This document shows, piece by piece, positions 52,574-63,887 of a stretch of 64,000 nucleotides of DNA. Position 1 is the first letter of the stretch. Each line of letters opens with the position of its first letter. The notes beneath the pieces are model-generated. The model was not told the origin of the DNA, ran no database searches, and saw only the letters and a list, made by a program, of their open reading frames with translations. The DNA lies in assembly GCA_020619395.1 (NCBI GenBank), contig GCA_020619395.1_4860.1; one strand, 5' to 3'. Made by a program: the position numbers and the translations under genes. The stretch comes from a phage.

Positions 52574-52648
52574 GACGGACTGCCTACGGGCGGGTAGTCC
52601 GTAGGTAAACCGCCCTTCCGTTATTGGGAGGGCGGTCTCCGTTTTATT
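52574..52648 (+). terminator. tandem hairpins / probable terminator between fibre genes
   Basis: two GC-rich stem-loops (cctacgg/ccgtagg; accgccc/gggcggt) followed by ccgttttatt. Confidence 0.45.
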
Positions 52649-52668
52649 ACAGATTAGGAGTGTTTGCA

Positions 52669-55600
52669 ATGCCGAGAGAAGATGCGGCGCAGTTTAACGG
52701 TACCCTCAGTACCGCTACTTACCCGAACCGTTATTCGACGGTCATTCCCGTCGAAGCACCGTTCTATCGCATCGGGTTAACGTTAACCGTTACCGATAAA
52801 ACAACCGGAACCAAACGCAAGTTAATAGAAGGTCTTGATTATTTCTTAGGACATTACTTCCAGGAATTAGCCGAGGCTGAGAACGATGCAATATACGGCA
52901 GCATAATGCTGCTGAACGCCACAGAGGTAGAATACGAGTTGTTGTCGGTTGGTCGACAGTATCGCATCCCTGCTTCTGAAATCGGCAAGTATCTGGTTAA
53001 GACAGATATGAAAGACCCGCGTAACTGCGATTGGTCTGAGCTGATGAAATATCCGCCGATTATCTCGCCAATCGACCCGCCAAAAGATCTCGAAGAAGCC
53101 ATCCTTCGCGATGAGATTGTAAAGGCGCTGGAAGATATCCGACTGGGCATTTTAGAACGTGCCCACGAACTGGATGAGGCTTTTGCCGAAGTTACCGATT
53201 TGATTTATCAGAACGGTAAACAGGTGTTTGATGACGAAATGTATCAACACCACCTGATTAAAAATGCACATGGTTACACCTGTGGCGATATCGGTGCACT
53301 CCCTGTGCTCGGTAAGGCCGTGGATGCGACTAAGGCGTTTGGACGTACACTGGCAGAGCTAGTGACGTTAATGTCTACCAGCGGCATCCAACAGAAACAC
53401 GTTGACATGCTTCTGGATAATACCCTGGGTGATTTACTGGGCCGTATGCGTGTTCTGAATAACGACGCGATTACGTTCCAAACAACGTCTGGTCACGTTA
53501 TCAGCATGAAGGGTGAGAAGTTCATTATCACCTCGACAAAACCGCTGGTATTAAAAGCTGACCAGGATAACAACGAACCGGGTATCGCTACGGAGTTCAG
53601 TGCTGGTCTGAACACGCTTTGGGTTCACTCGGGTAAAGCAGGTGACAAGTGGGGCGCTTATGATGCAGGTGTGCTTGCACCTGTATATAACAGCGTGTAT
53701 CTCGTTACACCGGATATGGTTAAGATGTACTTGACCTCGGTGAAGATACTTCCAGCAAACGCCTACTTCAAGTCCAGCGACACGTTGAAGATTTACGGCT
53801 CTGGTAAAGAAACAAACAAAGTTTACATGAATGCGGAGCTGCCTGCAGCAACCACAACTGTGCAGGGTTTGTTTGCGATTACTAACCTCTCGGCATCCGC
53901 TGCAGCGTCCACAGCGATTTCCCAAAAAGCTGTTACTGACTTGAAGAACAAACTCGACGGATATGTGGACGACACGTATACAGTCAATGGTAAAGGGTTT
54001 GTATTAGATTCAAACGGGCAGATGCATCTGACCTTAACCGCGGCAGATTTCGGTATTGAGAAGATGAACAATACCGGACCGCTGGAGAAACCGGTTACTA
54101 ATGCGTTGCGCACCGTGCTATCAGGCAAAGCGCTTACAACGCACACCCACACCATTGCAGATCTCGATAACGTGCCGTACGCATCCACGTCTGTTACAGG
54201 TTTGGCTAAACTGTGGGATGCAATCGACACTACCTCGGATAAGATGGTCACTTCGCGTCAGGGCTTCTTGCTTGAACAAAAGATTGACACACTGAATGAC
54301 AAGATTGCTACGCTGTTGCCCGCATGGACTGTCGGCGGATCATCGTACGGCAACAATAACTTCTTGCCTATACCTGTCCAGGGGAACTACGAAGGGTATA
54401 CCAAAAACCAAACCTGGCAGAAAGGTTTGGCGCGTTACGAGTCTGGTAAGGTTTACTCGCTCCGTAACGGTTCTAACGGGAATCCACCAGGTGACTGGGC
54501 TATCTATTACGCCTATGCTGATGTGTCGCCAAGCAATACGCTGGAAAATATGCAGCAGACGTCCGTACGTTATCGACCCGCTGGAATGTCGGCGTATCCT
54601 GGGGTGAATCTGGTTGCTATTGTGATTACCGGTACCGATGCAATGATCTGCTTAGGCAGTGACGGTGCGTACTACCTGGTCATCTTCGATGGGACGATTG
54701 ACCATGCAAAACATCATCGTGTTGTTAAAGTGGTGTTGGGTGATTACAAGAACGGTAATGGTGCGGGCACAGTAACGACAGCACCGTGGGCTCCAAACGC
54801 TTCTACAGACGATTTGATTGTTTGTAATGAGCGTGTCTACCTGTTGCGTACGGTGCTTACCTCCGGTGACTATTTCGTGAGTATGCGTAGCATCGCACTC
54901 AACGAACTTAATCCGGGTGGTAGCAACACGTTTGTGGCGGATGCGTTAACAGGCGGGATATTAACGTCGGGTGAAAACGTTTATCTACGACAGGGACAGA
55001 AACGTGCAGCTTCCGATGCGCTCCCAGCACCAGTTACACAGATCTACGCAGACGCGTTAGCGAAATGGAACAATGCAATCAACTTTGTACATGGCCCTGA
55101 GTGTAATCACGCGATTGGTGTTGATGGGCTGAAATTTCGTGTTGGTTTAACGCCAACAGTCTGGTTTGCCTCCTCCACAGGACAGACGATTAACTTTAAA
55201 CAGTGGACGTCAAGCTTTGTTGTCGACTGTAGCGCATTAACGGTAACTCTGGAAGGCGCTGATCGATTCCCTATTGTGGCTGATCTTACCACGGTTCGTT
55301 ATAACAGTGGTGCTGAGATTGGGATTCCGAGCCGGAAGTGGGGCGAAGGCCAAGCTAATAACAAAACCTTTGCAACATCGCAAGACAAGTATATTGTTTC
55401 GCAAGGACATGCAGGCGATCGCGACCTAATGCCTTATGTCACGATTACAACGTTAGATGACGGTGTGAGTTGGTACGAGTACCTGTCGTGCGACTACAAC
55501 TTCACTGCCAGAAGTTTTAGTGCGGTAATGTTAAACCAAGGTCGTGGTTCTATCTACGAGCTGGGTATGGCGTATCCGCTGACTCTGGGAGCGAATTCCA

Positions 55601-57852
55601 GACTTATCTGGTTGTCACAACCGCGTTCCCGTTTGGCAATTGAAGTTGAGTTTGATCCGAACACCACTTACTCAGGTAAGGCGGGGTATGGCCCAACTAA
55701 CAATCGTCGTGTAGTAGATTCTATCACGTATGAGAATCTGTCGCAGATGTGCCACATTGTTACACCGGCGTCGCCTGGTACAGAGTTAAACGGCTGGTAT
55801 TGCACAGGACCAGAAACATTCCCTTATCACAACGTTTCTGGCACTTTCACGATTCATGCCGATCGGTTGACGCTGTCACAAGCCGAATGGGATAAGATGA
55901 AGCAGATGATCATCGACGGTGCACCGGCTGGCGCTGCGAATGGTTATGCTTCGGAATTTATCCTTGCCGCAAATAACGCAGGAAAGGCATTGTTCTCCGT
56001 TTGGTTCATCGGCATTGGTACGGCCACACCGCTCACGTTAGCACAAGTAGCATGTACGCGTACTGTGAACAACGTTAACGTGTTGGATATCTACTACTTT
56101 ACACTGAAACCAACAATCAGCAACGGGCAGGTAACATTCCCCGCAGCGATATTGGCTTTGTTTGACTTCTATAACAACCTCGACTATGGCTTGAACTATG
56201 CTACGTTGGGTGAGATAACGGGAGGAAAAACACGCCGGCCGGGACAACCTACACTGGTGTCGGTAGATGGTACTCGGTTCGGGTTGTATCTTCCACACAC
56301 GTTAACCTTGCGCCTGATTGGCGACTTGGGTGCGCTTAACTACGCTGTTGGTCTTACGCTGTCTAATGGTACTTGGACGCGTTCTTCTGCTCCACACGGC
56401 GTTGGACGTATGGCACCGGCACACACTCCAGTCAGTCCAGCTTATCTGGCCCATCGCGATCAAGTGATGCTACACAACTCATCTCTCGACTACGTCTACT
56501 GTGGTGGTATCGCAACGTCGTCGAGTGATTTTGTCGCGGCTCCTAATTTTAGTGGCCCGACTGAATCGGTTGTCATTGCTGGTGTGGAAACAGCTGAAGG
56601 TTGGCTGGTATATGTGACTGAGGAAGTTGACCTGCGTTTCGGCTCGAGCACTTATAAGCTGCCTACGTGGTATATTGACCTCAGCGCAGCATTTCCAACA
56701 AACCATCAGAACCGGACATTCTACCTGCACGCCAAGGTAGAAAATGGTACACCGAAGTACGTAATGGACGTGATTCAACATCCAGACACTGAAACGGAAC
56801 TCTATATCGGGTATGTTAAAACGGGCTCGTCGCGAGTCGTCGAGACTAACGTCGAACATGCTAAGCGATTAGGGGCGGTGAAACAACTGTTGGAACATGC
56901 GGCGGTTGAGAATAAGCATGATGTGGAGGTGGGAAGGGATGCAGCAACGGGCAGACTGGCACCATTGCGTAAAGAAGCGATGGGTCCTTTGTCGATCGAT
57001 GCTACGAAAGGCTATCTGGATAGTCAGTTGCTTTATACCGTATCCGACGCACAGCGTCGCGGTAAAGCGATGGTGTCCAAACGTTTCGAAGGCTTGAAAA
57101 CTTTGCCGGCGTTTACTCAGGCAAACAAGTCGGGGGCGTTTTGGAAACATCCTACAACAATTGCGACGGTAACGGCCGATGAGAACAGTGAAGCGACATC
57201 GTTGGGTATGGAGTGGGTAGGTATTCCAACGCCCGCTTTCGCTCCGACCTCAACAAACCTGATGGTGGTGGTGCAAAGTAAATTCGTCGTCCCAGGTACA
57301 CCGGGAGTAGAAACGACCTTTAATGTCCACGTTGCCCCATGGGAGGCGGTGGATGGCTTTTTCTACAACGTCGAGGCGGAAGGTACGGATGTTAACATTG
57401 ATGAAAATCCAGAAGTGTTATTGCCGTCACCACATACCGTGCACCACAAACAGCACTCTCTGCCAGCAGGCGTGCCGTGTACCTTTACATTTGTCGCGGC
57501 GGTAAGTTCTTCAGCGCTCGAAACAGCTAACCAGCATATTTGCTCTTGGCTTTTCACTGACGCTGGGGGACTACCAATCACCACCGATCTTTCGGATAGT
57601 AAGATTCAAATCTTACCACAGCCGGGAGAGACCAACGGCACACCAGTTGTTCTGAACAGTCGTAGCTACACGTTTACGAATGTGACAGGTGCAATCCCGG
57701 TTGTTACCACGGGCGCTCAGGGTTTATTCCCACCACCGATCGTGGCGTGGGATGGCGATGATCTTACGTTAACGATTGCGCACGATTGGGTGAACGAGAG
57801 GGGACGTCAACAGCCTGATGTTATCCAGGTCAATCTTATGTTCCGTACCTAA
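52669..57852 (+). CDS. tail fibre protein 3
   Basis: about 1727 aa from ATG at 52669 with SD aggag (ORF track extends to TTG 52624); repeats TTTVQGLFAITN, STSVTGLAKLWD; HTHTIADL. Confidence 0.75.
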   Translation: MPREDAAQFNGTLSTATYPNRYSTVIPVEAPFYRIGLTLTVTDKTTGTKRKLIEGLDYFLGHYFQELAEAENDAIYGSIMLLNATEVEYELLSVGRQYRIPASEIGKYLVKTDMKDPRNCDWSELMKYPPIISPIDPPKDLEEAILRDEIVKALEDIRLGILERAHELDEAFAEVTDLIYQNGKQVFDDEMYQHHLIKNAHGYTCGDIGALPVLGKAVDATKAFGRTLAELVTLMSTSGIQQKHVDMLLDNTLGDLLGRMRVLNNDAITFQTTSGHVISMKGEKFIITSTKPLVLKADQDNNEPGIATEFSAGLNTLWVHSGKAGDKWGAYDAGVLAPVYNSVYLVTPDMVKMYLTSVKILPANAYFKSSDTLKIYGSGKETNKVYMNAELPAATTTVQGLFAITNLSASAAASTAISQKAVTDLKNKLDGYVDDTYTVNGKGFVLDSNGQMHLTLTAADFGIEKMNNTGPLEKPVTNALRTVLSGKALTTHTHTIADLDNVPYASTSVTGLAKLWDAIDTTSDKMVTSRQGFLLEQKIDTLNDKIATLLPAWTVGGSSYGNNNFLPIPVQGNYEGYTKNQTWQKGLARYESGKVYSLRNGSNGNPPGDWAIYYAYADVSPSNTLENMQQTSVRYRPAGMSAYPGVNLVAIVITGTDAMICLGSDGAYYLVIFDGTIDHAKHHRVVKVVLGDYKNGNGAGTVTTAPWAPNASTDDLIVCNERVYLLRTVLTSGDYFVSMRSIALNELNPGGSNTFVADALTGGILTSGENVYLRQGQKRAASDALPAPVTQIYADALAKWNNAINFVHGPECNHAIGVDGLKFRVGLTPTVWFASSTGQTINFKQWTSSFVVDCSALTVTLEGADRFPIVADLTTVRYNSGAEIGIPSRKWGEGQANNKTFATSQDKYIVSQGHAGDRDLMPYVTITTLDDGVSWYEYLSCDYNFTARSFSAVMLNQGRGSIYELGMAYPLTLGANSRLIWLSQPRSRLAIEVEFDPNTTYSGKAGYGPTNNRRVVDSITYENLSQMCHIVTPASPGTELNGWYCTGPETFPYHNVSGTFTIHADRLTLSQAEWDKMKQMIIDGAPAGAANGYASEFILAANNAGKALFSVWFIGIGTATPLTLAQVACTRTVNNVNVLDIYYFTLKPTISNGQVTFPAAILALFDFYNNLDYGLNYATLGEITGGKTRRPGQPTLVSVDGTRFGLYLPHTLTLRLIGDLGALNYAVGLTLSNGTWTRSSAPHGVGRMAPAHTPVSPAYLAHRDQVMLHNSSLDYVYCGGIATSSSDFVAAPNFSGPTESVVIAGVETAEGWLVYVTEEVDLRFGSSTYKLPTWYIDLSAAFPTNHQNRTFYLHAKVENGTPKYVMDVIQHPDTETELYIGYVKTGSSRVVETNVEHAKRLGAVKQLLEHAAVENKHDVEVGRDAATGRLAPLRKEAMGPLSIDATKGYLDSQLLYTVSDAQRRGKAMVSKRFEGLKTLPAFTQANKSGAFWKHPTTIATVTADENSEATSLGMEWVGIPTPAFAPTSTNLMVVVQSKFVVPGTPGVETTFNVHVAPWEAVDGFFYNVEAEGTDVNIDENPEVLLPSPHTVHHKQHSLPAGVPCTFTFVAAVSSSALETANQHICSWLFTDAGGLPITTDLSDSKIQILPQPGETNGTPVVLNSRSYTFTNVTGAIPVVTTGAQGLFPPPIVAWDGDDLTLTIAHDWVNERGRQQPDVIQVNLMFRT

Positions 57853-57899
57853 CAGATAGCGCTATGGGGCAAGGAAGCCCCAATCAAAGGAGTTTGGCA

Positions 57900-59102
57900 A
57901 TGGCCGAAATCATTTATCAGTACCCGCTTGACCTTACCGGGACATTAACGTCGAACGCCGTTACACGGCGTATTACGTTAGGTTCTGGTAAAGTTAACCG
58001 GGCTTTTGCTTTTCCTGACGGAGCTTTCTACGCGGATACCTTCCGCTTGGCAGCTGCGAATAAACCAGGTGTCTACCCGTACAAACGCGGCACAGACTAC
58101 GAACTGATTTTTGCACATACTGCATATCAGAAAATGACCAAGAACCGCGAAGTGGTCATGGGTGTGGTGGTAACTAACTCGGCCATTCCTACTGATATCG
58201 AAGTCTCTGCGCAAGTCGTTGGTGGTTTTCAGTCCGCGAACGTCGAAGGTATCCGACAAGCGATTGCGTCGCTGAAAATTGAAGACCGTGTGGTGGACTT
58301 CAAGGATCTTCGAAACGTACCTGATACGTTCCCATCCGCCCCGACGTATAAAGACCTTGGCGATATCTACGGTTTTGAGTATATCATTACCGTACTCGCT
58401 GGGATTAAAGATGCGATTAACTCCGGCTCTGCAGTACAGCTGGAAGAAATCAAAGGTATTCTGGACGGTCTGAAAAACGACTTCCTCGATGCCTTAAATG
58501 CCCACATCAACGCCGAAGGTAACGTACACAATCTCGACATTCATCAGGTTAATGGCCTGACGGAGACGGAGATTCGTGCTCTGATTCAAAGTGTACAGAC
58601 TGCCATTGACGCCACTATCAAAGATATCGGCGACTTAAGAGCAGCAGACACGGCGTTGGGGCAACGCATCGATGCAATTGTGGCTTCGTTAGCCGCGTGG
58701 AACGACCAGCTTAATGTAGTTGCTCAAAATTACCAGAAAATGTCGTTAGCATTAGCTAACCTTAATTCTCTGGTGTTGCAATTACAGAAGATGGTTAACG
58801 ATCTTCAGTCTGCACTGAATGAAACAAATCAGCGCGTCACGGATCTTGAGAATCAGGGCAAAGACTTCCAACAGCAAATTGATAACCTGCAAGGACAAAT
58901 CAACAGTCTTAAAACTCAGGTTATAAACAACACCAACGCAATTTCGCAGGCAAACCAGAATCTGGCGAACCATGCGGCTGCGGATAACCCACACCCGAAT
59001 TACCTCCATAAACAGTATGGCGGTGTTGTGCAGGCTGCTGTTCACGTCAACAACAGCCTCACCTCGCGCGACGATGTTCAAGCTGAAGCGGGTACTAAGT
59101 AA
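57900..59102 (+). CDS. tail fibre-like protein 4 with C-terminal coiled coil
   Basis: about 400 aa from ATG 57900 (SD aaaggag); N-terminal domain homologous to fibres 1-3; Q/N/L-rich heptad region near C-terminus. Confidence 0.65.
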   Translation: MAEIIYQYPLDLTGTLTSNAVTRRITLGSGKVNRAFAFPDGAFYADTFRLAAANKPGVYPYKRGTDYELIFAHTAYQKMTKNREVVMGVVVTNSAIPTDIEVSAQVVGGFQSANVEGIRQAIASLKIEDRVVDFKDLRNVPDTFPSAPTYKDLGDIYGFEYIITVLAGIKDAINSGSAVQLEEIKGILDGLKNDFLDALNAHINAEGNVHNLDIHQVNGLTETEIRALIQSVQTAIDATIKDIGDLRAADTALGQRIDAIVASLAAWNDQLNVVAQNYQKMSLALANLNSLVLQLQKMVNDLQSALNETNQRVTDLENQGKDFQQQIDNLQGQINSLKTQVINNTNAISQANQNLANHAAADNPHPNYLHKQYGGVVQAAVHVNNSLTSRDDVQAEAGTK

Positions 59103-59167: not shown

Positions 59168-59560
59168 ATGGCGATATCTATTAAAGACGTCAGAAACCGC
59201 GTCCAGATAGTCGAAGCTAACATGGCGACAGGCCCCCGCATCGAGGCGCAAGTGGCCTCTAAAGCCCATAATGCAGCAGACCGATTTGGGGGTTGGACGA
59301 AAGCACAGCTAGATTGCGGCGGGACATGTTCTTGGACGTGCTCTAACGGTTGCTCGCATGGCTGTTCGAGCTGTTCAGGAAGCTGTTCTGCTTCTTGTAT
59401 CGGTAGCTGTTCTTCGACGTGTGGCGGTAACTGTTCTGGTTGCTCTGGTTGTTCTGGTGGTTGCAGTAGTAGCTGTACCGGTAACTGTTCAGGTGGTTGC
59501 GGCGGCTCTTGTTCCGCAAACTGCTCCGGGGCCTGCTCCGGCGGCTGTTCAGGTCGCTAA
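59168..59560 (+). CDS. Cys/Ser/Gly-rich precursor-like peptide A (leader + C-x3-C repeat core, 21 Cys)
   Basis: 130 aa; SD aagga; about 50-aa leader then DCGGTCSWTCS... with Cys every 4th residue; adjacent to radical-SAM genes. Confidence 0.65.
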   Translation: MAISIKDVRNRVQIVEANMATGPRIEAQVASKAHNAADRFGGWTKAQLDCGGTCSWTCSNGCSHGCSSCSGSCSASCIGSCSSTCGGNCSGCSGCSGGCSSSCTGNCSGGCGGSCSANCSGACSGGCSGR

Positions 59561-59570
59561 GGGGGATTAA

Positions 59571-59972
59571 ATGGCAATTGGATTAAAAGAACTGAATAAC
59601 CGATTAAACGCGATCGATGCAAACGCTTTAAAGAACACCACGAATGTGCAAAACTACATTCGCAATAAAGCTACGAATAACGCCGACTTGTTCGCAGGTC
59701 AAGGCCGTTCGCACTATGACTGTGGTGGCACATGCTCTTTTAGTTGCTCGAGTTGTTCTGGCGGGTGTACTGGGTCTGCTACGGGCGGTTGTGGGTCGAC
59801 TTGTTCCGCAAACTGTGTATCGGGCTGTAGCAGTAGCTGTACGGGCTGTAGCTCTTCGTGCTCGGGTGGTTGTAGCGGAACGTGTACTGGTAACTGTTCT
59901 GGGGGTTGTGGTAAATCCTGCTCCGCAAACTGCTCCGGCGCGTGTTCTGGTGGTTGTTCAGGTCCTAACTGA
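59571..59972 (+). CDS. Cys/Ser/Gly-rich precursor-like peptide B (paralogue, 20 Cys)
   Basis: 133 aa; SD ggggga; leader homologous to A; core DCGGTCSFSCS...; C-terminus near-identical to A. Confidence 0.65.
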   Translation: MAIGLKELNNRLNAIDANALKNTTNVQNYIRNKATNNADLFAGQGRSHYDCGGTCSFSCSSCSGGCTGSATGGCGSTCSANCVSGCSSSCTGCSSSCSGGCSGTCTGNCSGGCGKSCSANCSGACSGGCSGPN

Positions 59973-59983
59973 CGGAGGCTTAT

Positions 59984-60190
59984 GTGATCAGTCTCAAGAC
60001 TATTCGAAACCGTCTCGTTACGGTAGAAGGTTACATTACAACCGCACAGGCAAACAACTATATCGCTAACCAGGGCACCGTGTCGACCACAAATAACCTG
60101 GCTGGCTTACCGCTTTCTCACTATAACTGTAATGGTGGGTGTAGCTGGTCCTGCAGCGGAAGCTGTAGCCGTGGAGCGGGGAATCGATAA
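59984..60190 (+). CDS. Cys-rich precursor-like peptide C (short core, 5 Cys)
   Basis: 68 aa; GTG start with SD ggagg; leader homologous to A/B (LK-x-IRNRL); core NCNGGCSWSCSGSCS. Confidence 0.5.
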   Translation: MISLKTIRNRLVTVEGYITTAQANNYIANQGTVSTTNNLAGLPLSHYNCNGGCSWSCSGSCSRGAGNR

Positions 60191-60212
60191 CAGAAAACGT
60201 TCGGAGTATTAA

Positions 60213-61100
60213 ATGAAAAACGATTTGCATCTTGCGTATAAAACCACATTCAACCACCCGCTGCATCTATCTTCCCCAGATTCAGTGCGTGCGCACCTTG
60301 CTGACAAAGTCAGACTGATTGCACAGATTCCTGGTGAGTGGCCAAAGGTTCGTGGTCGCTTCTTGACCGACAAGAAGAACTACACCGTAGAAAATACGTT
60401 TAAGATCCGTGATATGGTTGCAGAGGCCATCGTTATCTTTAACGGCGATGGTAACTCTCGTGGCGTGTTAGTCGACGGTAAGTATTTCTTCAGTGAAGGG
60501 ATTTTGAACAACAGCGTCGATTTAGAACTGATGTTTACACCGTTTGACGAACTTGAAGCAAAACCGATGGCGCGCCGTTGGTGGAGTCCGGACTATCTGG
60601 GCTCGTTCCCTTACTACTTTGTACTGGTACCTGCCGATACGGAAACGTATTTCGACACCGAACCGTACATCGATATCGAGGGATATAAAGAACTCGGCAT
60701 CACCCGTTTAGCGGACATGATGGCGTATAGCTATAAGTTCGTGTGGGATAAAAAGCGTTCTGTCTGGTATGCGTTGACTGACGATTTTGAAATCACCAAA
60801 CGTATTCGTAAGCCGTGGATGCAACACCTGGTTCAAACCCGATATGGGGATTACCCGGCGACAGAAGCGGATTTGAGTAAGCTGGTAAGCTTCCTCTTAA
60901 CGAAGGTGGATTTAACGAAAGAAGAAGCAGAAGCTGTTTCTGAGATTCGTAGTCGTTCGGTAACGTTGGCCGATTTGAAACGCTTGAACGAAAGACACGC
61001 CGACCTGAACAAAATTTTAGCTGCCTATCACGACCCGATGTTACTGGTGCCTGGCGCTAATGTAGACGAAGATCCTTTATTCGCCATTGATTATATTTAA
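60213..61100 (+). CDS. hypothetical protein (cluster-associated, unknown function)
   Basis: 295-aa ORF with SD ggag, lying between precursor peptides and radical-SAM genes. Confidence 0.6.
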   Translation: MKNDLHLAYKTTFNHPLHLSSPDSVRAHLADKVRLIAQIPGEWPKVRGRFLTDKKNYTVENTFKIRDMVAEAIVIFNGDGNSRGVLVDGKYFFSEGILNNSVDLELMFTPFDELEAKPMARRWWSPDYLGSFPYYFVLVPADTETYFDTEPYIDIEGYKELGITRLADMMAYSYKFVWDKKRSVWYALTDDFEITKRIRKPWMQHLVQTRYGDYPATEADLSKLVSFLLTKVDLTKEEAEAVSEIRSRSVTLADLKRLNERHADLNKILAAYHDPMLLVPGANVDEDPLFAIDYI

Positions 61101-61122
61101 AAATATACTGGAGCAACCTGCA

Positions 61123-62037
61123 ATGACAGATCAAGTAGAATCCAGGATCTCGTCTGAACTGTACGACAAACCGTCAATTCTGTCGGTTGTCGCAACTTCT
61201 AAGTGTAACTTAGACTGTAGCTTCTGTGGAGGGGCTTATTACATGGATAGAGAAGATACTTCTCGTGAGTTTCAACGCGAAGAGATTCTCTCGATTTTAG
61301 AGAAGAATCCGGATATCGGTGAGATTCATTGGACGGGCGGTGAGCCGCTGTTAGCGCAGCGTAAGATTGAAGACTTCGTGAACGAGTTGAAGGAGTCTCA
61401 TCCGAACCTCCGTCATCACATGTACACCAACGGTTTAAAGATGCGTAAATCACATCTGCCGTTGCTGAAACAGTTCGACCTTATCTTTGTGTCCATTGAC
61501 GGCTACAAGAAGTCGGAACGTCCGTTTATGAACTTTGTAAACGGTGGTAATCACGAAGCGCTGGAAGTGCTGTACGAGCTGGACAACTATTACACCTGGG
61601 GTGTGATGACGCGTGACCAGTTAGGTGATAAACGCTGGTACGAAGATTTCATCGAGCTGCACCGAGCAATCTATCATTACCGTCCAGGTGGTGTGTCGTT
61701 GTTGTTTGATGCGATGATGCCGAAACCGTTATCGCCAGACCACGTCATGAACTTCATGTACGGGTATTGGAAAATACTCGACAATATCGAACGCCTTAAC
61801 ATGCAGAACGATTCTGAATGTGGGCTCGCGATCAGTAAAATGTTCGATACCGAGTGCAACACGTGCAGTGAAGTGCTGTGGCTTAACGCCGACGGTACGC
61901 AGGAGCAAATTCAGAACGCCCCAGAGATATTGGAAGTCGGCTGTAATCGCCTGGCGCGTTCTATCGGCGTTGATGCGTATAACTACATCAACCGTGTAAT
62001 TTCTGCTAAGCGTAAACGGGCGGCGAACAATGAGTAA
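61123..62037 (+). CDS. radical SAM enzyme (peptide-maturase-like)
   Basis: CNLDCSFC (CxxxCxxC) near N-terminus, GGEPLL SAM-binding motif, C-terminal extra Cys (ECG...CNTC...GC); ATG 61123 with SD tggag. Confidence 0.8.
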   Translation: MTDQVESRISSELYDKPSILSVVATSKCNLDCSFCGGAYYMDREDTSREFQREEILSILEKNPDIGEIHWTGGEPLLAQRKIEDFVNELKESHPNLRHHMYTNGLKMRKSHLPLLKQFDLIFVSIDGYKKSERPFMNFVNGGNHEALEVLYELDNYYTWGVMTRDQLGDKRWYEDFIELHRAIYHYRPGGVSLLFDAMMPKPLSPDHVMNFMYGYWKILDNIERLNMQNDSECGLAISKMFDTECNTCSEVLWLNADGTQEQIQNAPEILEVGCNRLARSIGVDAYNYINRVISAKRKRAANNE

Positions 62038-63358
62038 TAGCGAACAGCAAATCCAGTACACACCACGCACGTATCAGGTTGTGACTAACCTGTCATGTAA
62101 CCTGGACTGCGAATACTGCTACGAGCGTAAATATCCGCGTAACAACAAAGTAGCAGACGTGATTGATTTTATCCACGCTTGTTTCGAGCGCGATAAAGAT
62201 ATCCCGAACGTTGAAGTCATCATCGATATCATCGGTGGTGAGCCGTTCATGCAGCCTAAACTTCTTTTGGCGGCCTTTGAAACCGCAGAGAAGTTATGCG
62301 CAGAACACAATCGCCCGTATATGTTCAGTATCTCCACGAACGGTACGCTTCTGGACCGTCCGCTGAACAAAGAAATTATCGAGCGCTGGAAAGACAAACT
62401 GTCTATTGGGGTCTCCATCGATGGTTTACCTGAAGTCCATGACAAATATCGTATCTTTACCACGACGCGTGAAGGGTCGTACGAAGCTGCGGTACGCGGT
62501 TACAATTATCTGAAGAGTGTTGGCATCGCTGAACTGGGCGTAAAAGCGACGTTTACGATCGATACATTGCCGCACTATGCCGCCAGCATGAAATCGTTAA
62601 TTGACATGTCCGGCGGTGGTACCATTTCTGGTAATGTAACGTACGAAGATATCCTGCCGCGCCATATGGCGTTGGATATCGCGAACCAGATGATGGACGT
62701 GATGGACTACTGGATTGAGAAGGGTCTGCACACCAACCCGCGTAACACGATTACACACATCATCCCGGATGGCCTGAACTTTATGGCAACTTGGGACCCG
62801 GATTGGCGTGACAAACTCTTACACGACGACTCTGTTCGTCTCGACCCAGAACGCCTGAAACCGTACTGCGGTACGTTGACGCACATGACCTGTCTCGGCT
62901 TTGATCGCAAGATTTACGGTTGTAACCGTTTCATGTCCACGGTAACTTCCCGCTCTGCTGTAGCGGAACTGGTCGGTCGTGAGTTTGTGAGTCTGGACGG
63001 TGGTAAGCTGTTAGAAGAGATTCAAACGCAGTACACCAACTACCCAGAAACCTGTTTAGGGTGTCCGATGAAACACAGCTGCGGTAGCTGCGCAGCGGCA
63101 TCGTACGAAAACGGTGAAGGTACACTGGAAGACCGTAAAGCGTATCACGCCGAGCGTCGTCAGTGTGGTTGGACTACTGCGAAGCTGATGGCGGCGGAAT
63201 ATTGGTATCAGAAAACTGGTACGACTCGCGCATCAGATTTGCACGATAAATCCATGTGCTATTGTTCACGTTGTGTACGCCAACGTGCCGAAGCAGAAAA
63301 ATTACAAAACGGAGCCCAGAATGAAGTCAATACTGATTCACAATTTTACGAAGCGTAA
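62030..63358 (+). CDS. radical SAM/SPASM-domain enzyme (anSME/sactisynthase-like)
   Basis: CNLDCEYC (CxxxCxxC), GGEPF, C-terminal SPASM-type cluster CLGCPMKHSCGSC plus further Cys; start overlaps upstream stop (ATGAGTAATAG). Confidence 0.85.
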   Translation: MSNSEQQIQYTPRTYQVVTNLSCNLDCEYCYERKYPRNNKVADVIDFIHACFERDKDIPNVEVIIDIIGGEPFMQPKLLLAAFETAEKLCAEHNRPYMFSISTNGTLLDRPLNKEIIERWKDKLSIGVSIDGLPEVHDKYRIFTTTREGSYEAAVRGYNYLKSVGIAELGVKATFTIDTLPHYAASMKSLIDMSGGGTISGNVTYEDILPRHMALDIANQMMDVMDYWIEKGLHTNPRNTITHIIPDGLNFMATWDPDWRDKLLHDDSVRLDPERLKPYCGTLTHMTCLGFDRKIYGCNRFMSTVTSRSAVAELVGREFVSLDGGKLLEEIQTQYTNYPETCLGCPMKHSCGSCAAASYENGEGTLEDRKAYHAERRQCGWTTAKLMAAEYWYQKTGTTRASDLHDKSMCYCSRCVRQRAEAEKLQNGAQNEVNTDSQFYEA

Positions 63359-63887
63359 ACTGCACTTGGTCGATCGCTTCCTGCGCAAAAGCAAGCTGTA
63401 CAATGTGCACGCAATTGTGGCAGGGGAAGACTTCACTGATGAAATCCAAAGCCTGTTGATTAAATACGGGCTGAATGTGATGATCCCGGTCTACTGCGTT
63501 GAGAAAGGACACGAGTCTGTCGCGGAAATCGAAAAGCGCAACCCTGGCTTTGAGAAGCGACTGCTTGCATACCCACGCCACAAAATCGAACTGCTACGTC
63601 ACTCTATTGATGAAGCCAGTCCTGAAAGTTTAGTGGCATTGGGCTTGTCATTCCCGCGGATGCGTATTCGTAACTTACGCTCCAATAACCCGGTTGACGC
63701 TTATTACACAGAACGTCAAATCTTCGAAGAACACCTGCTCCCGCAGTTGGAAGAAGAAGAGCAACACAACATTTCTCTGTTGTGGGCCGGTAACCTCGAT
63801 CAGGACTTCCAGATGCTGGACTTCGGTTTGTTGTTAGAACTTGGCCTGATTGAGGAGGACGAATGTCTGTTACTGACAAAAGCTTAA
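63321..63887 (+). CDS. hypothetical protein
   Basis: about 188 aa from ATG 63321 with SD ggag (ORF track extends to 63273); start overlaps rSAM gene end. Confidence 0.5.
   Translation: MKSILIHNFTKRKLHLVDRFLRKSKLYNVHAIVAGEDFTDEIQSLLIKYGLNVMIPVYCVEKGHESVAEIEKRNPGFEKRLLAYPRHKIELLRHSIDEASPESLVALGLSFPRMRIRNLRSNNPVDAYYTERQIFEEHLLPQLEEEEQHNISLLWAGNLDQDFQMLDFGLLLELGLIEEDECLLLTKA

Follow-up and report, generated by a model that had tools for sequence, protein, structure and literature searches.

What does a protein of 295 residues with no recognisable domain contribute to a phage gene cassette built around radical SAM enzymes? The question is raised by a locus towards the end of a 64,000-nucleotide stretch of phage DNA (the window), which shares 98-99% DNA identity with the Salmonella jumbo phage SPN3US. 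The protein is 100% identical to SPN3US gp165 (SPN3US_0165 / YP_009153459.1), and it is annotated as "hypothetical protein" in SPN3US and in all the other phage records examined.

The gp165 gene and its neighbours

The initial annotation described a 295-aa ORF lying between precursor and maturase genes, preceded by a good ribosome-binding site and showing no diagnostic motif. That description stands: three Cys-rich ORFs are found 5' of the gene and two radical SAM genes 3', a GGAG precedes the ATG, and gp165 gives no match in a Pfam scan and noise only in an NCBIfam scan. The features of the region are as follows:

52624..57852, + strand: giant tail fibre/baseplate protein, a 1742-aa ORF homologous to SPN3US gp168 (SPN3US_0168)
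57864..59102, + strand: virion structural protein with a coiled coil, gp167 homologue (phrog_2163, E 1e-108)
59168..59560, + strand: putative Cys-repeat substrate 1, 130 aa with 21 Cys (phrog_6085, E 7e-40; TIGR04114, E 0.002)
59571..59972, + strand: putative Cys-repeat substrate 2, 133 aa with 20 Cys (phrog_6085, E 2e-41)
59984..60190, + strand: short third Cys-rich ORF, 68 aa, GTG start (phrog_6085, E 3e-25)
60203..60206, + strand: ribosome-binding site GGAG of the gp165 gene, read from the sequence, 6 bases 5' of the ATG
60213..61100, + strand: gp165-family accessory gene, ATG start, TAA stop, 295 aa
61123..62037, + strand: gp164-like radical SAM enzyme, 304 aa, no SPASM match (PF04055, E 1e-15)
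62030..63358, + strand: gp163-like radical SAM/SPASM peptide maturase, 442 aa (PF04055)
63321..63887, + strand: gp162-like protein (phrog_7988), a lineage-restricted fifth gene of the cassette

Substrate 1 consists of an N-terminal part of about 49 aa, followed by the junction CGGTCSWTCS and then the repeats; the short third ORF (59984..60190) has the junction motif, HYNCNGGCSWSCS, and almost no repeats. The CxxxCxxC motif of the radical SAM enzymes is found at C28/C32/C35 in the gp164-like protein and at C23/C27/C30 in the gp163-like protein, whose gene overlaps that of gp164 by 8 nt. The gp162-like gene was found in the window, CR5, Wellington, phiEaH2 and the loci L012, L258 and L256 (L numbers denote the loci and contigs of our surveys), and was not detected in L008, L009, L014 or L015; a role for gp162 as a universal fifth component was rejected, since it was detected in jumbo-like loci only. 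The next SPN3US gene, gp161, lies beyond the window end and encodes a DUF4376 protein. Another DUF4376 protein is encoded just upstream of the substrate in L009 (8563-9228), where it matches tail-fibre and fibre-assembly PHROGs.

Annotation errors exposed here have kept the Cys-repeat proteins out of the SPN3US reference proteome. The deposited gp166 (SPN3US_0166; window 59571-60069; L001 8425-8760; product MCKTTFAIKLRITLTC…) is in the wrong frame and overlaps the conserved Cys-repeat ORF 2, and both Cys-repeat ORF 1 and the short ORF 3 are unannotated, so that none of the three putative substrates is represented. The deposited SPN3US_0164 (L001 10030) begins at an internal Met (MDREDT…) and thereby loses the CNLDCSFC radical SAM cluster motif (window 61123-61242); the true gp164 start is likely the ATG at 61123, which is preceded by GGAG at 61110-61113.

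The gp165 gene, on the other hand, is well supported. Its product matches phrog_8030 ("unknown function") over essentially the entire profile (E 7.4e-151, residues 1-293 on profile positions 1-293 of 295), and a word-indexed search of 5.8 billion proteins returned 49 clusters, each at least 40% identical to gp165 and none with a Pfam domain. These 49 relatives align end to end at 40-100% identity, and an exhaustive HMMER profile search of 1.84 billion representative proteins likewise returned 49 relatives. Together with the SPN3US identity, the full-length PHROG match and the end-to-end relatives establish a real gene and not a chance ORF. Among the SPFM records LR535901-LR535917 (Salmonella phages SPFM1, 5-10, 12, 14, 15 and 20), whose genomes are otherwise SPN3US-like, gp165 and gp163 matches are fragmentary and of low coverage, which looks like the product of frameshift-rich assemblies. 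Literature searches on SPN3US gp165, phage radical SAM enzymes and tail fibres, CXXX repeats, and ranthipeptides and phage returned nothing on gp165 or the cassette.

Linkage to radical SAM genes and Cys-repeat proteins

Gene linkage was surveyed with local HMMs, from the gp165 side as well as the maturase side, in 16 loci that represent 12 or more phage lineages. All 16 have a gp164-like radical SAM gene together with the gp165-like gene, the two being direct neighbours in 15, as found with radical SAM profiles that were partly built from the same loci, and precomputed Pfam labels (PF04055) independently confirm the neighbours as radical SAM. A gp163-like SPASM radical SAM gene is present in each locus wherever the contig extends that far. 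The survey covers the SPN3US-like genera Seoulvirus, Derbicusvirus, Wellingtonvirus and Erskinevirus, the jumbo-like contigs L012, L258 and L256, a T4-like myophage (L008), an SU10-like podophage (L009), a lambda-like prophage in Deferribacter abyssi (L014) with a related contig (L015), and several short contigs. The suggestion in the initial annotation that gp165 could define a new accessory family thus holds in part: with radical SAM genes at every locus, gp165 is a dedicated cassette accessory, but the family itself is not new, having been catalogued before as phrog_8030.

The order of the genes varies around a constant core. The SPASM gene lies upstream of the substrates in L256 and L257, and between the gp165-like and gp164-like genes in L008, yet in all three the gp165-like gene stays between the substrate and radical SAM genes. 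In L009 (10699-12672) the two radical SAM enzymes are fused into a single protein of 657 aa. Gene ends commonly overlap by 4-8 nt (4 nt in L009, 8 nt in L007, and 8 nt between gp164 and gp163 in the window), and such overlapping or abutting ends suggest translational coupling.

Several individual loci are of interest in their own right. L014 (GCA_049472655.1, contig JAQNCS010000009, 79416-94573), the sole cellular-genome context seen for the gp165 family, has a complete cassette of the window's type at the end of a lambda-like prophage tail module with a GpJ-like protein, and L015 (5306-8134) has three radical SAM genes in a row. In the T4-like contig L008 (12982-14727) a 581-aa YcaO protein is encoded after the cassette, suggesting that azolines or thioamides are formed in the same Cys/Ser/Thr-rich domain.

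In every locus whose sequence 5' of the gp165-like gene was available and inspected, a Cys-repeat ORF was found there; it lies directly upstream except in L007, where the gp164-like gene intervenes. The form of these ORFs differs among phages. In the jumbo phages there are two Cys-repeat proteins of about 130 aa and a conserved short ORF of about 68 aa; in L008, L009, L011, L014 and L015 the Cys-repeat domain is the C-terminus of a protein of 180-300 aa, encoded directly 5' of the gp165-like gene. The C-terminal parts in L009, L011, L014 and L015 match phrog_6085, the family of the window's Cys-rich ORFs, with E values of 2.5e-14 to 8.5e-4. The N-terminal parts in L009 (E 1e-6) and L008 (E 6e-4) match a tail-fibre PHROG, and the L014 and L015 substrates have weak "phage tail repeat" Pfam matches that fall below the gathering score, so that four of the five long proteins from the non-jumbo loci have a tail-fibre PHROG or tail-repeat Pfam match. 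The cassette also follows a GpJ-like central fibre gene in L014 and L015, and a Collar-domain fibre gene and the DUF4376 gene in L009.

The substrates share a distinctive junction. Of 20 substrates from cassettes with gp164 and gp165, 17 have the motif N-A-x-x-L-x-G-x5-Y-x-C-x-G-x-C-S-W-(T/S)-C ahead of the repeats (junction peptide …NNLAGLPLSHYNCNGGCSWSCS), and the C-S-W junction occurs in none of the three canonical TIGR04115/TIGR04116 targets (L112, L217 and L239) discussed below. The extra radical SAM enzyme and gp165 may act specifically at this junction. The short third ORF of 60-70 aa, with its Y-x-C-x-G-x-C-S-W motif and almost no Cys repeats, is retained in the SPN3US-like genera and was seen in CR5, Wellington, phiEaH2, L219, L012 and L256 (coordinates include L003 5780-5989, L004 5779-5988, L005 5784-5990, L012 7786-7995 and L256 5808-5990); a minimal substrate, a primer and a regulator are its candidate roles.

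These observations change the meaning of the word precursor. The initial annotation had precursor genes upstream of gp165, and three Cys-rich ORFs are indeed there, but free secreted RiPPs are improbable when the same domain forms the C-terminus of 180-300-aa proteins, some of them with fibre matches. The "precursors" are probably structural-protein domains awaiting maturation, and the cassette as a whole looks like a structural-protein maturation system.

The same evidence invites the view that gp165 is a fibre-assembly chaperone that would help the Cys-repeat end to fold, trimerise or attach to the virion, either ahead of the radical SAM modification or after it, and would not directly serve the enzymes. 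Its gene in L008, L009, L011, L014 and L015 occupies the classic position of such a chaperone, directly 3' of a long gene that is fibre-like in most of these cases, whereas in the window short Cys-repeat ORFs lie 5' of it; the window cassette lies inside the tail fibre/baseplate block gp167-gp173; and gp165 has a profile that looks non-enzymatic and, like many chaperones, is absent from virions. We nonetheless consider the chaperone reading unlikely. The strict partner of gp165 is the gp164-like radical SAM enzyme, and the cassette in L012 has no recognisable structural genes alongside. Phage Cys-repeat proteins in L217 and L239 lack a gp165-like gene, which argues that the repeat domain itself needs none. 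Similarity to tail-fibre assembly families was not found, the best "tail fiber assembly" match in BFVD having an E value of 1.0 and a TM score of 0.14.

Proteomic data on SPN3US bear on a further alternative, that gp165 is a minor structural protein of the tail fibre or baseplate that has escaped detection. Mass spectrometry of the SPN3US virion identified 86 proteins, among them all the products of gp167-gp173, with gp168 assigned as a tail protein; gp165 is not among the 86, and these published data thus give no detection of gp165 in purified virions (PMC5694885 Table 1 and Supplementary Table 1; PMC5105663 for gp168). The gene does lie within a block of virion genes, and proteins of very low copy number can go undetected in mass spectrometry. 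However, that survey lists some virion proteins on the strength of only four spectra (PMC5694885 Supplementary Table 1), and gp165, a 34-kDa protein rich in Lys and Arg, did not appear. Moreover, what gp165 is linked to are enzymes, not any given set of structural genes, and this is so in myo-, podo- and sipho-type phages alike, whose tails are unrelated. We regard a structural role as highly improbable. The absence of the Cys-repeat proteins from the same proteome is uninformative, because gp166 was misframed and the other two ORFs were omitted (assuming the proteomics used that annotation), and because small Cys-repeat proteins would struggle with the three-peptide threshold given in the table footnotes.

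Fold, conservation and a proposed docking role

The gp165 of the window is a 34-kDa protein with a pI of 5.5 and no Cys. Its predicted architecture comprises an N-terminal alpha/beta part (residues ~1-190) and a C-terminal helical module (~191-272), and the latter holds the best-conserved positions of the family. Remote-homology and fold searches, proposed in the initial annotation, gave no match to a solved structure, no hit in a profile search of PDB sequences with the gp165 family, and only phrog_8030 among PHROGs, which is also the only PHROG matched by distant relatives. The initial annotation had singled out homology to an unrelated structural protein or fibre chaperone as the result that would speak against an accessory role, and none was found by sequence or by fold.

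Two of the specific roles it had offered fare less well. A transporter is excluded: gp165 has no membrane segment, the highest Kyte-Doolittle value over 19 residues being 0.82, and no ABC ATPase or transporter family match in Pfam or NCBIfam scans. A standard Ser, Cys or metallo-peptidase is disfavoured, as gp165 has no Cys and an alignment of 42 diverse members shows no family-wide conservation of any Ser, His or Cys; neither an HExxH motif, nor a catalytic Ser/His/Asp or Cys/His set, nor a peptidase family match (Pfam, NCBIfam) was found.

A more general enzymatic alternative remains to be weighed, wherein gp165 is a new-fold enzyme that carries out a third modification of the Cys-repeat protein, such as leader removal, cyclisation, dehydration or a cofactor-independent cross-link at C-S-W. 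An unrecognised active site is conceivable in a fold without known relatives, and the junction motif is confined to cassettes that have both gp164 and gp165. The SPN3US-like group also has many invariant polar and aromatic residues (H28, R47, R49, K90, Y91, W124, R197, R199, K200 and W202, among others). Across the 42 members, however, only a hydrophobic/aromatic core and D168, K200, D220, K223, K231, E238 and R261 are kept, and while these charged positions could be read in favour of catalysis, they are accompanied by neither a conserved Ser/His/Cys nor any cofactor-binding motif (Pfam, NCBIfam and conservation analysis). The RIRKPW patch and most other invariants of the close group are lost in a distant subgroup with the same gene context. 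That divergent subgroup spans 230-393 aa and keeps mainly the C-terminal module (consensus ADYGRLIxFLLSKVxLTxEEK), and an enzyme core would not usually vary so much in length and have so poorly conserved an N-terminal half. An enzymatic gp165 therefore strikes us as quite unlikely.

Overall, we see about an even chance that gp165 is a non-catalytic docking or scaffold subunit of a two-enzyme radical SAM maturase. All functional statements made here rest on gene context and exclusion, and docking in particular is argued from position and exclusion, not from resemblance; we infer the binding by gp165, the cross-link chemistry and the structural fate of the product alike. In the proposed pathway, gp165 would dock the Cys-repeat protein and present it to the gp164-like radical SAM enzyme and the gp163-like SPASM enzyme. 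The contact might be made with the N-terminal part of about 50 residues, or with the junction N-A-x-x-L-x-G-x5-Y-x-C-x-G-x-C-S-W-x-C that directly precedes the repeats. Next, the two enzymes would introduce covalent cross-links into the CXXX repeats, most likely thioethers by analogy with PapB-type enzymes. Once modified, the domain would serve as the hardened end of a tail-fibre-like protein; in the SPN3US-like phages, the modified small protein would join the fibre/baseplate apparatus. gp165 would then leave and stay out of the virion. Several points weigh against this scheme: a recognition element could reside within the SPASM enzyme itself, the C-terminal helical module of gp165, its best-conserved part, could contact the enzymes instead of the substrate, or the few conserved charged residues could be catalytic and gp165 an unrecognised enzyme. 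The fuller version of the docking proposal, in which gp165 founds a new-fold class of docking subunits and, with the radical SAM pair, installs RiPP-type cross-links in the Cys-repeat ends of tail-fibre proteins, is one we advance more tentatively, at somewhat less than even likelihood.

If this is correct, radical peptide-maturation chemistry known from secreted natural products and enzyme cofactors also builds virion proteins in myo-, podo- and siphophages. Radical SAM peptide maturases have been studied mainly as makers of antibiotics and cofactors, and the presence of the cassette in very different tailed phages, often in association with fibre-like proteins, points to cross-linked receptor-binding or fibre structures. 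We found no description of virion hardening by this form of post-translational cross-linking in the literature searched. gp165 is the one component of the cassette without a recognisable fold or function, and the SPN3US amber-mutant system, together with virion proteomics, makes its role directly testable.

Comparison with known systems

Tail-fibre chaperones (Tfa, gp38 and gp57A-like proteins) have in common with gp165 a gene directly 3' of a fibre-like gene in several phages and an absence from the virion. They differ in showing no sequence or structural similarity to gp165, and gp165 is strictly coupled to radical SAM genes, a coupling we do not know for any classical fibre chaperone.

RRE/PqqD proteins (PqqD, MftB and fused RREs) offer a closer functional parallel, being non-catalytic, substrate-docking elements encoded beside a radical SAM/SPASM maturase, the same job that we propose for gp165. 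The resemblance ends there: these domains are about 90 aa long, gp165 is 295 aa with another predicted architecture, and it has neither a PqqD-type model match (Pfam, NCBIfam) nor a match to the winged-helix RRE fold of three helices and a three-stranded sheet. A docking role for gp165 is possible, but not by way of an RRE/PqqD-type domain.

The His-Xaa-Ser system, with its target HxsA, radical SAM/SPASM enzyme HxsB, radical SAM enzyme HxsC and HxsD, shares the general design of a repeat target, paired radical SAM enzymes of which one is a SPASM protein, and a small extra protein. The top NCBIfam match of the gp164-like enzyme in L014 is HxsC, and gp163 matches HxsB. These scores are weak, however (41-49 bits for HxsC against a cutoff of 268, and 75-96 bits for HxsB against a cutoff of 370), the phage target repeats are Cys-based and not His-Xaa-Ser, and NCBIfam scans of gp165 gave no Hxs family match. 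The position of the radical SAM cluster is also informative here. The CxxxCxxC motif begins at residues 23-28 in both phage enzymes and 80-105 positions into the SCIFF, HxsB and nif11 maturase models, and the phage enzymes thus lack the N-terminal region of those models, where those families carry recognition domains; we count this in favour of the docking reading.

Among characterised enzymes, PapB is the closest. It forms Cys thioether cross-links in short repeated motifs, and its substrate recognition has been attributed to an RRE docking module (PMC12373016), which shows that docking is important for this enzyme. On the PapB model gp163-like enzymes reach 113-163 bits, close to their TIGR04115 scores (the PapB cutoff of 340 lies far above), and gp163 itself has as its best NCBIfam matches the TIGR04115 CXXX-repeat maturase (125.6 bits, cutoff 350) and PapB (113.6 bits). 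PapB, in contrast, acts without partners, its substrate is a short leader-core peptide, and its cross-links join Cys with acidic residues (freyrasin, a ranthipeptide); the phage repeats are composed of Cys, Ser, Gly and Thr with almost no Asp or Glu, the phage system has two radical SAM enzymes plus gp165, and its substrates can be fibre-like proteins of 180-300 aa.

The most instructive comparison is with the CXXX-repeat cassettes, which combine a Cys-rich repeat target (TIGR04114), a radical SAM/SPASM maturase (TIGR04115) and an associated protein of 90 aa (TIGR04116); the literature searched yielded no functional study of this canonical system. Genome and viral collections were scanned for runs of nine Cys codons spaced as CXXX, which gave 240 loci, and local filtering then pointed to canonical examples in Candidatus Termititenax (L112) and in the phage contigs L217 and L239. 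In L217 the maturase and accessory score 386 bits on TIGR04115 and 59 bits on TIGR04116, both above the curated cutoffs; gp163-type enzymes score 125-179 bits on TIGR04115 (cutoff 350). The canonical cassettes on phage contigs stand beside Cys-repeat proteins (L217 7319-9547; L239 5656-8619), and the L239 target has a tail-protein PHROG match and a weak match to the F5/8 type C domain. The gp165 type may therefore not be the only cassette by which phage proteins with Cys repeats are matured.

Homology between gp165 and TIGR04116 was considered and rejected. gp165 has no match to this family (cutoff 50 bits), and only one of the 42 family members reaches 10.9 bits (E 0.4), in the conserved C-terminal module; hhalign gave probabilities of 0.09-0.25% against the L112, L217 and L239 proteins, a comparison whose power is limited by its three templates. 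At 295 aa against about 90 aa, gp165 also differs in size and context, and it is only the position in the cassette that is analogous.

There are thus two types of cassette, each with a Cys-repeat target, an accessory and a SPASM radical SAM maturase. Type A, the canonical one, consists of a target, one SPASM radical SAM enzyme and a 90-aa accessory; type B, that of the window, consists of one or more targets with the C-S-W junction, a gp165-like protein, a gp164-like radical SAM enzyme and a gp163-like SPASM radical SAM enzyme. In L112, L217 and L239 the small, non-enzymatic TIGR04116 protein occupies the same slot as gp165, which is three times longer. Type B adds a second radical SAM enzyme without SPASM, and its substrates have the Y-x-C-x-G-x-C-S-W junction that canonical targets lack. 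Among the 240 pattern-scan loci, no gp165-like gene occurs without radical SAM genes, and the type-A loci have no gp165-like gene. gp165 is the marker that separates the phage variant from the canonical bacterial CXXX-repeat cassette. What appears to be new here is a non-homologous accessory without a solved-fold match, its pairing with a second radical SAM enzyme, and the apparent use of the whole on phage fibre proteins.
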